In this document: piece after piece, positions 36,723 to 37,535 of the stretch | Position numbering within the stretch: position 1 is the first letter of the stretch | Layout: the number at the start of each line of letters is the position of its first letter | Source of the DNA: Escherichia coli | GTDB taxonomy: Bacteria; Pseudomonadota; Gammaproteobacteria; Enterobacterales; Enterobacteriaceae | Reading direction: 5' to 3' (one strand) | Assembly: GCF_003334815.1 (NCBI RefSeq) | Contig: NZ_QOWO01000010.1 | DNA: 64,000 nucleotides | Position numbers and translations under genes: made by a program | The notes under the pieces: generated by a model | What the model was told of the DNA's origin: nothing | Seen by the model: only the letters and a program-made list of their open reading frames with translations | Database searches by the model: none

Positions 36723-37535
36723 TCAGCACTCAACAAACTGATGCTGTTCATTAAGACGATAGCGGACTCCGGCTCGAATATTGTTTTCACCTTCAATGGC
36801 GACGGCGAAGCGAACTCTTTCGCCGTCATGATATGCCAGTGCGGCGCTTCCTCCTGGCCCGAGAATAATTGAGTCGACCACGCCCGTGCTCACTACCGTT
36901 GAATTTTCACCGCTGGCAATGATGTGTACATTGTCGCCGCTGTTGGCAATTCTGGCGTTTGCGCCAAAGCTGGCGATTTGCACCAGGTCACCATTACTGG
37001 CGACATGACACCGTTCACCCAATGTACAAACGCGTACTCGCATTCCGGTATTCGCAATCCGACTGCTATCTCCAGCGCTGCTTATCCGCGAAGAATTACC
37101 GGTTACAGCAACCCGTGCGCGTTCACCGGAGCTGCCAATGTGACTGTTAAAGCCGACACTTCCAATCCGCACGCTATAACCCATACTGGCAATTTGCGCG
37201 GCATACCCAGCGGTTGCGATTCTGGCGTTATCCTCACAACAGCCGATGCGAGCATGATCGTCGCTGCGGGCAAACTGACTGCAAAATGGTCTCTCTCCGG
37301 GGTCTGTGGCCAGTTTTTGCATAGAGGAAACTTCCTGATGCGCGAAGTTTTCATCCGCCAGCCATTTTTTCCACGCATACTCAACCAGACTCTCCGCCCA
37401 GTCCGTATATCCTTCCTCAATCAGTGCATGATGAATATCGGCATAACTACCGCCGCGTGGGAAATGGCGCAGGAACCAGCGATACATCACCGCTCCGATA
37501 CGCCATTCTCGCAGGTCTGCTTGTGTAATGATCAT
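36723..37535 (-). CDS. ydhT: FhuF-like/repeat protein of the ydhYVWXUT operon
   Basis: 270-aa ORF, last gene of the minus-strand operon; contains degenerate short tandem repeats. Confidence 0.85.
   Translation of the reverse strand: MIITQADLREWRIGAVMYRWFLRHFPRGGSYADIHHALIEEGYTDWAESLVEYAWKKWLADENFAHQEVSSMQKLATDPGERPFCSQFARSDDHARIGCCEDNARIATAGYAAQIASMGYSVRIGSVGFNSHIGSSGERARVAVTGNSSRISSAGDSSRIANTGMRVRVCTLGERCHVASNGDLVQIASFGANARIANSGDNVHIIASGENSTVVSTGVVDSIILGPGGSAALAYHDGERVRFAVAIEGENNIRAGVRYRLNEQHQFVEC

Follow-up and report, generated by a model that had tools for sequence, protein, structure and literature searches.

The ydhT Locus

The 64,000-nucleotide stretch of Escherichia coli DNA studied here (assembly GCF_003334815.1, contig NZ_QOWO01000010.1; in the following "the window") carries ydhT, the last gene of ydhYVWXUT, an anaerobic oxidoreductase operon controlled by FNR. 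We found that the encoded protein contains a stalk of 15 nonapeptide units between a helical head and a conserved C-terminal cap, and that stalk and cap have homologues in phages. Taken together, the structural and evolutionary data make it probable that YdhT is a head-stalk-cap β-solenoid protein, derived from phages and captured once in the ydh operon. The gene and its parts are the following.

36723..37535, minus strand: ydhT coding sequence, 270 codons plus stop (list of open reading frames (ORFs), NF007410 equivalog)
37308..37535, minus strand: YdhT_N head (Pfam PF27195), residues 1-76, five helices
37254..37307, minus strand: variable linker and solenoid start, residues 77-94, with low predicted local distance difference test (pLDDT) values and the highest ratio of non-synonymous to synonymous substitution rates (dN/dS)
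36849..37253, minus strand: stalk, 15 nonapeptide units, residues 95-229, predicted β-solenoid
36726..36848, minus strand: C-terminal β cap, residues 230-270 (AALAYHDGERVRFAVAIEGENNIRAGVRYRLNEQHQFVEC)

The protein of the window scores 489.7 bits against the NCBIfam equivalog model NF007410, "protein YdhT" (cut-off 300, E 2.4e-147, residues 2-270 of 270), and 5418 of 5426 complete E. coli genomes contain ydhT at 95-100% identity. In one complete E. coli genome (H8) the gene is split between two places. Public assemblies also hold E. coli length variants of 253 aa (467 members), 287 aa (169), 197 aa (about 100) and 149 aa (156), which are found in clusters P0028, P0029, P0033, P0002 and P0006 and suggest alternative start calls together with truncated alleles in some strains. 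Furthermore, the unannotated GenBank entry CP025887.1, "Escherichia phage 503046" (23,083 bp), contains ydhT at 19033-19560 with 99.4% protein identity. In all likelihood this entry is a piece of chromosome (or transducing DNA) that was deposited as a phage, and not a case of phage-borne ydhT.

The head shows the motif L-x2-W-x7-YRWF-x3-FP-x-GG-x-Y; its assignment to PF27195 is the precomputed Pfam annotation of P0001 (99% identical) and of all orthologues. The linker varies in length among the YdhT orthologues. The cap is the best-conserved portion of the entire family, as seen in a cap alignment across members with differing heads; it corresponds to phrog_27197 and has no sequence match in the PDB or in Pfam. 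With YdhT as the query, a PDB sequence search, Pfam-A and PADLOC gave nothing informative: at E <= 10 Pfam-A returned only two sub-threshold matches, DUF6876 and Asp_decarbox, and 0 families of PADLOC-DB 2.0 match the protein.

The original prediction had noted that YdhT does not look like a typical redox subunit, and this is borne out. The six cysteines (85, 99, 100, 170, 176 and 270) include none that is invariant in 13 orthologues, and the protein has no iron-sulfur (Fe-S) motif, no transmembrane segment (Kyte-Doolittle maximum 1.23) and no twin-arginine motif. A FhuF-like or Fe-S redox subunit, the former named in the same prediction as a family for comparison, was rejected because there is no FhuF or FhuF_C Pfam match and no invariant cysteine; a membrane-bound or exported YdhT was rejected for want of a transmembrane segment and a twin-arginine motif.

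An Exact Nonapeptide Array

The central part of YdhT had been described as a run of imperfect units of 8-9 residues. The repeats are real, but the period is exactly 9, and the array exceeds this description in both length and regularity. If residues 95-229 (window 36849-37253) are cut in nines, 15 in-register units with zero indels are obtained; the span 36850-37300 given for the repeats covers the array, but takes in part of the linker as well. The units read as follows.

Units 1-15: ARIGCCEDN, ARIATAGYA, AQIASMGYS, VRIGSVGFN, SHIGSSGER, ARVAVTGNS, SRISSAGDS, SRIANTGMR, VRVCTLGER, CHVASNGDL, VQIASFGAN, ARIANSGDN, VHIIASGEN, STVVSTGVV, DSIILGPGG

Their consensus is [AVS]-[RHQ]-[IV]-[AG]-S-x-G-[DE]-[NS]. 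All 15 units have Ile or Val at position 3 and 13 of them have Gly at position 7, while position 2 is chiefly Arg, His or Gln and position 5 chiefly Ser. The periodicity was measured by autocorrelation against 1000 composition-preserving residue shuffles. At lag 9 the core gives a mean BLOSUM62 score of +1.39 and 32% identity (z = 11.2), with further signals at lag 18 (z = 10.2) and lag 27 (z = 9.6) and none at lag 6 (z = 0.2) or lag 8 (z = -2.7). The same autocorrelation finds no lag-9 signal in the N-terminal 94 and the C-terminal 41 residues. A single 9-residue register is kept without indels in all YdhT orthologues. At the DNA level, Tandem Repeats Finder detects no 27-bp tandem repeat in ydhT, so that the repetition exists at the protein level only and the units must be old and diverged.

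These values decide against the idea that YdhT is a hexapeptide-repeat left-handed β-helix of the acyltransferase type, as had been proposed originally. The periodicity alone already refutes it: the period is 9 and lag 6 is silent. In addition, the protein contains no run of three hexapeptide motifs ([LIV]-[GAED]-x2-[STAV]-x) and no Hexapep Pfam match (PF00132 / PF14602) at E <= 10, and the closest structural matches are two-sheet solenoids rather than triangular left-handed β-helices. We consider such a fold extremely improbable.

Predicted Fold of the Stalk

The structure was predicted with AlphaFold2 from an alignment of 13 orthologues. The model reaches a mean pLDDT of 83.8, with 84-95 for repeats and cap and values below 50 at residues 61-69 and 71-84. 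It gives one strand per nonapeptide, with strand lengths that alternate between 4 and 5 residues. The cap forms four strands (230-236, 241-247, 258-261 and 267-269) with pLDDT 91-95. The stalk is thus predicted to be a rigid two-sheet β-solenoid with two units (18 aa) per coil and about 7.5 coils. Each unit would contribute one short strand and one Gly-containing turn; Ile/Val at position 3 and the small residues at positions 1 and 5 would fill the core, and positions 2, 8 and 9 would be exposed and form surface ladders. The number of units per coil and the inward and outward positions follow from the strand positions and the 4/5 alternation rather than from coordinates.

Two independent observations fit a coil of 18 residues. 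The sole indel within the solenoid among the operon orthologues has a length of exactly 18 residues; relative to longer YdhT forms, SAGTHSYIGSTGDNGWLS is missing from Escherichia and most Citrobacter. The second observation comes from an evolved clone of Serratia symbiotica, in which a gene annotated as ydhT_1 (1413 nt) suffered a 54-bp in-frame deletion, at a coordinate that falls within a mitomycin-inducible prophage (PMC12505973).

The architecture is similar to that of the RTX β-roll (CyaA block V, alkaline protease) and of region IV of the Marinomonas primoryensis antifreeze protein (MpAFP, 3p4g), but YdhT does not belong to this family: it lacks GGxGxD or xGTGND motifs, the Pfam match and the secretion signal, and its turns are not uniformly acidic. 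We therefore had to weigh whether YdhT is itself an RTX-type β-roll, in which the nonapeptides fold only with one Ca2+ per turn, as in CyaA or with the 19-mers of MpAFP. The unit length of 9 aa, the two units per coil and an Asp or Asn in many turns are in line with this, as is a match of the homologous ORF55 of Edwardsiella phage GF-2 to the repeat part of the NCBIfam RTX_toxin model. This match is weak (E 1.1e-5, 23.9 bits), lies far under the cut-off of 1000 and may be compositional. YdhT contains zero GGxGxD motifs and no HemolysinCabind (PF00353) match, and the Asp position is often occupied by Tyr, His, Asn, Phe or Met in YdhT and its family, which makes a Ca2+ site in each turn impossible. 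Moreover, YdhT has no secretion signal and would be cytoplasmic, where free Ca2+ is very low, and no type I secretion genes were seen in the operon. An RTX-type β-roll is consequently very unlikely.

Other known solenoids differ as well. Curli CsgA and the ice nucleation proteins, solenoids rich in Ser, Gly, Gln and Asn, are secreted or surface proteins with coils of 19-23 or 16 residues, while YdhT has no signal peptide; CsgA polymerises end to end, whereas YdhT possesses a head and a conserved cap. Closer in their mode of action may be the bactofilins (DUF583) and the pentapeptide proteins (Qnr/MfpA), which are cytoplasmic solenoids whose shape and surface let them serve as polymer scaffolds or mimic DNA. 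By analogy, the mechanism of YdhT would be of the same kind, based on surface and not on catalysis. The geometries are nevertheless unlike that of YdhT, because bactofilins form three-sided coils of 18 residues and pentapeptide proteins four-sided coils of 20 residues built from 5-mers. YdhT has no Pfam match to bactofilin PF04519, pentapeptide PF00805, Curlin_rpt PF07012 or ice nucleation PF00818. The possibility that YdhT is a DNA mimic was rejected, since the net charge of the stalk is about zero (family median 0; YdhT +2).

A Modular Phage Family

An exhaustive phmmer search with YdhT yielded 611 cluster representatives at E <= 1e-3, whose matches reach the C-terminus and mostly comprise stalk and cap only. 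The phage proteins of PHROG 4433, 18079 and 27197 are homologous to YdhT over stalk and cap (phrog_4433: E 1.7e-6, residues 100-270; phrog_18079: E 0.0025), and GF-2 ORF55 shares the head as well. In IMG/VR, a pattern scan built on the narrow alignment A4, whose counts are lower bounds, found the repeat-plus-cap module in at least 556 confirmed viral stretches.

The repeats of the relatives are far cleaner than those of YdhT, for example "...SSGDSAQIGSSGYGAKIGSSGD...", "...ASGDDSRLAASGYYSQLA..." and "...TTGDSAHAATTGYSAHAA...". The family consensus is [AS]-[QKR]-[IL]-[AG]-[SA]-S-G-[DYN]-x, and phage units are close to A-Q-I-G-S-S-G-D-x. Their scaffold positions are near-invariant (entropy 0-1.2 bits) and variation is confined to positions 2 (Q/K/R), 8 (D/Y/N) and 9 (S/Y/D/G); ten di-residue types account for 76% of 1482 phage units. 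The number of units ranges from 6 to 23 in 111 representatives and from 11 to 35 in 72 viral ORFs. A rule that this number must be even was discarded, as 52 proteins have an even and 59 an odd count despite two units per coil.

What is exchanged in this family is the head. Besides YdhT_N (PF27195) we found DUF7666 (PF24703), a PcfJ-like head, a DarG-like macro domain followed by DUF7666, and an "A1S_2505 family phage non-structural protein" domain followed by DUF7666. The 72 complete viral ORFs include 58 with DUF7666, 7 with YdhT_N, 3 with the A1S_2505-like domain plus DUF7666 and 2 with PcfJ. YdhT_N and DUF7666 have no detectable relationship (hhalign probability 0.1). With only the cap (A5) or only the head (A6) as the profile query, PDB and Pfam returned no more than a choline-binding repeat (E 4.1) and WYL_2 (E 0.09, one member). 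In the metagenomic proteins P0081 and P0089, an N-terminal macro domain matching DarG precedes DUF7666, stalk and cap. The match has E 4.5e-17 in PADLOC, where P0081 is the sole match among the relatives, and E 3.3e-15 in NCBIfam. DarG is an antitoxin with DNA ADP-ribosyl glycohydrolase activity. The macro-headed members are candidate phage counter-measures to DarT-type DNA ADP-ribosylation.

GF-2 ORF55, annotated as a "putative collagen-like protein", matches YdhT in its whole architecture, the YdhT_N head included. Its identity to YdhT residues 95-270 is 42%, it contains about 23 near-perfect units, and its DNA carries a 27-bp tandem repeat with 20.9 copies and 89% identity. Within the early-left operon the gene is flanked by an N-like antiterminator and by cIII. 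Other phage copies adjoin a helicase/primase (Paracoccus phage Shpa) or an exonuclease and a HicB-like gene, or are found with small early genes ahead of the terminase; none of the phage contexts examined placed a relative in a structural module. GenBank labels the phage relatives "hypothetical", for instance gp53 of Enterobacteria phage ES18. In the AlphaFold database, relatives are named "uncharacterized", "DUF7666 domain-containing", "oxidoreductase subunit" (by transfer), "ice nucleation protein", "hemolysin" or "collagen", of which the last three are misnomers. A functional study of the family (PF27195, DUF7666) was not found in the searchable literature.

The differences between the two groups are clear. 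The phage arrays consist of near-identical units, encoded by 27-bp DNA repeats, that vary only at positions 2, 8 and 9 with a small D/Y/N/S alphabet, and the phage copies mostly have other heads and lie in early or accessory regions. YdhT, in contrast, has 15 individually diverged but conserved units in a fixed chromosomal operon.

Position and Distribution in the ydh Operon

Upstream of ydhT the window contains the other five genes of the operon.

41827-42453, minus strand: ydhY (ORF lists, Pfam on orthologous loci)
39704-41809, minus strand: ydhV, aldehyde:ferredoxin oxidoreductase family (ORF lists, Pfam on orthologous loci)
39053-39700, minus strand: ydhW (ORF lists, Pfam on orthologous loci)
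38321-39040, minus strand: ydhX, ferredoxin-like with a twin-arginine translocation (Tat) signal (ORF lists, Pfam on orthologous loci)
37539..38324, minus strand: ydhU, b-type cytochrome (ORF list; Ni_hydr_CYTB Pfam on orthologues)

Only 3 nt separate the ydhU stop codon from the ydhT ATG. For the survey of this operon we scanned for YdhV in one genome per species and then located all six Ydh proteins at the resulting 70 loci. In 42 of the 44 Enterobacterales loci with an intact ydhV, the operon runs Y-V-W-X-U-T and closes with a full-length and apparently intact ydhT. Operons that end in ydhT occur in Escherichia, Citrobacter, Leminorella, Limnobaculum, Budvicia, Proteus, Brenneria, Symbiopectobacterium and Serratia. 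In the remaining two loci ydhT has decayed. One of them (L067) is a fragmented operon in Symbiopectobacterium. The other (L025) belongs to Citrobacter sp. NCU1, whose two ydh operons reside on two contigs (L025 and L043); in its second operon, which has diverged further (YdhV 86% identical), only 38 codons of ydhT are left.

Outside the Enterobacterales the picture is different. All 25 loci from Firmicutes, Fusobacteria and Desulfobacteraceae lack ydhX, ydhU and ydhT and contain only Y-V and usually W, with a YdhV that is 47-60% identical. These loci (L045-L066, L070, L072 and L073) stem from Cetobacterium, Clostridia, Halanaerobium and Desulfobacteraceae. The gene content thus marks X, U and T as having been added to an older YVW core in the Enterobacterales specifically; since the YVW loci outside this order lack all three, the membrane/periplasmic module is the later, lineage-specific part. 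In the surveyed loci ydhT co-occurs strictly with ydhX, and Edwardsiella keeps ydhT though ydhU is missing. The locus in question (Edwardsiella tarda CP100802.1, L003, 2357841-2374794) has the order Y-V-W-X-T, without the cytochrome b gene ydhU, and abuts a convergent nap (periplasmic nitrate reductase) cluster.

Selection and Ancestry

We determined dN/dS between E. coli and four other Escherichia lineages. For whole genes the values are 0.05-0.10 (ydhT), 0.07-0.11 (ydhU) and 0.03-0.07 (ydhX). Within ydhT, the repeats give 0.02-0.05 in three comparisons (dS 0.5-0.65) and 0.15 in the closest pair, which has few substitutions; the cap gives 0.01-0.04, and the linker 0.16-0.52. In 18 gap-free orthologues from Escherichia and Citrobacter, the exposed positions 2, 8 and 9 are conserved like the core (0.86-0.96). 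On these substitution rates, ydhT is under strong purifying selection, in the same range as ydhU and ydhX.

This finding bears on the assumption that the repeat is just a compositional or low-complexity artefact, Gly/Ser/Ala-rich and "collagen-like", without a defined structure. Such a view could appeal to the database names of the relatives ("collagen-like", "ice nucleation protein", "hemolysin") and to weak NCBIfam matches to collagen-like adhesins. Collagen requires a Gly at each third residue, however, and YdhT does not have this. Shuffles that preserve the composition still leave lag 9 at z = 11, the register is free of indels in every orthologue, and neither the low dN/dS of the repeats nor their pLDDT is that of an artefact, to which we attach almost no probability. 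The units had also been called degenerate. Because the repeats are constrained, the surface positions conserved and the register kept in the orthologues, this appearance is not decay but an individual identity that each unit has gained and kept. Individually kept units would be expected if the surface is fixed and serves for binding; the arrays of the phages are the reverse, being homogenised and variable in copy number.

In a neighbour-joining tree of head and cap, calculated without support values, which limits its weight, the operon YdhTs form one clade that includes P0051 and P0059, both confirmed within ydh operons. The sister group consists of phage GF-2, L078 and P0065. The phage side is far more diverse, which points to one capture of the gene from a phage and vertical inheritance thereafter. 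The gene would then descend from a non-structural family of phages or mobile elements with a common stalk and cap and interchangeable heads. An ancestor of the Enterobacterales would have captured it once, at the 3' end of ydhYVWXU, after which the homogenisation of the repeats at the DNA level would have ceased and each unit would have become individually fixed. The original prediction called YdhT an odd partner for an oxidoreductase operon. As far as its ancestry is concerned this is apt, because the relatives are phage proteins; as a member of the operon it is not odd, being the last gene in almost all Enterobacterales species surveyed, with a selection like that on ydhU and ydhX.

Possible Role of YdhT and Alternatives

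How could such a protein function in the operon? We propose that YdhT is a soluble, cytoplasmic and non-catalytic rod, in which a five-helix head is followed by the solenoid stalk and a 40-residue β cap that closes the C-terminal end. It would act through its surface as a scaffold or binding protein, with ladders and head binding a partner from the YdhX/YdhU module. Possible tasks are the docking of the cytoplasmic YdhV-YdhY unit to the membrane, or the holding of the Tat substrate YdhX ahead of export. The link to this module is based on the fact that ydhT arrived together with ydhX and ydhU, follows ydhX in its distribution and is translationally adjacent to ydhU. As a specific role in the operon, docking or assembly for the YdhX/YdhU electron-transfer module can be put forward only tentatively.

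Several points speak against our interpretation. Phage relatives that share the architecture are unconnected with oxidoreductases, so that the role in the operon could be unrelated to electron transfer and the retention of ydhT could partly reflect vertical inheritance of the block. The searchable literature yielded neither experiments nor interaction data for YdhT. Over longer distances YdhT diverges faster than all its operon neighbours; in Proteus the identities are 80% for YdhV, 60% for YdhU, 41% for YdhW and 35% for YdhT.

The main rival explanation regards ydhT as a phage-derived passenger on the operon transcript, which retains an ancestral function (host takeover, anti-defence or superinfection-related binding) and has no oxidoreductase role. 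That full-length homologues are early or non-structural phage proteins, that DarG-like macro heads in some members suggest counter-defence and that YdhT evolves fastest of the operon proteins would all agree with this. So would a machine-learning study, correlative only, in which ydhT is among the gene clusters associated with the infection outcome for one phage (PMC12579225). A passenger would hardly be expected, though, at a fixed position coupled tightly to ydhU in at least six Enterobacterales families with two decayed copies only. The strict co-occurrence with ydhX, a dN/dS that resembles that of the redox neighbours, the loss of the homogenisation and copy-number flux typical of the phage repeats, and the absence of any PADLOC match argue in the same direction. 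We judge a mere passenger to be quite unlikely.

A more far-reaching idea, which we consider rather unlikely, is that the stalk is a programmable recognition surface in phages and was domesticated, with its "code" frozen, as a docking or assembly factor for YdhX/YdhU in an anaerobic aldehyde-oxidoreductase chain. The invariant A-x-I-G-S-S-G scaffold would display two ridges of di-residues (DY, DS, YS, NY, YY and others) next to a Q/K/R ladder. Recombination between the 27-bp repeats would reshuffle these displayed residues so that they keep pace with a host target that is periodic or evolves fast, and the stalk would deliver effector heads such as the DarG-like macro domain, DUF7666 or PcfJ. 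If true, this would represent a new class of accessory protein serving respiratory complexes, as well as a new binding scaffold built from repeats.

Neighbouring Genes

On its other side, ydhT converges with ydhS (35107-36711, plus strand), with 11 bp between the stop codons and no terminator in the gap. The sole terminator-like hairpin for the ydhT strand (36517..36500, minus) lies about 200 nt inside ydhS. The pair ydhS-ydhT is among the convergent overlaps ("excludons") detected by RNA-seq (PMC12288877). Further along, two tandem tRNA-Val(GAC) genes (34411-34487 and 34492-34568, plus strand) are situated between ydhQ and ydhR, and a 62-aa ORF on the minus strand (34378-34566) is the antisense reading of this tRNA pair. 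Two genes away from ydhT, a 418-aa ORF (32847-34103, minus strand), ydhQ by position, is rich in Gly and Asn/Thr repeats and resembles an autotransporter passenger or β-helix. The window thus seems to hold a second solenoid-type protein, unrelated to YdhT.

Conclusion

In summary, YdhT itself, its NCBIfam model, the Pfam domain YdhT_N and a public AlphaFold model were already known. Undescribed in the searchable literature and the libraries used are the exact nonapeptide solenoid, the repeat-plus-cap region, which has no match in the Pfam copy used, the homology to a large modular family of non-structural phage proteins, and the fixation of a single clade in the ydh operon under strong constraint. 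The predicted rod with its conserved surface, the arrival together with YdhX and YdhU and the strong constraint lead to concrete experiments on an FNR-controlled operon. The family also offers an uncatalogued and very regular 9-residue scaffold with three variable positions, which could be of interest for the biology of phage-host conflict and for protein engineering. Finally, ydhT provides a clean case of a non-structural phage gene that became fixed within a core metabolic operon.

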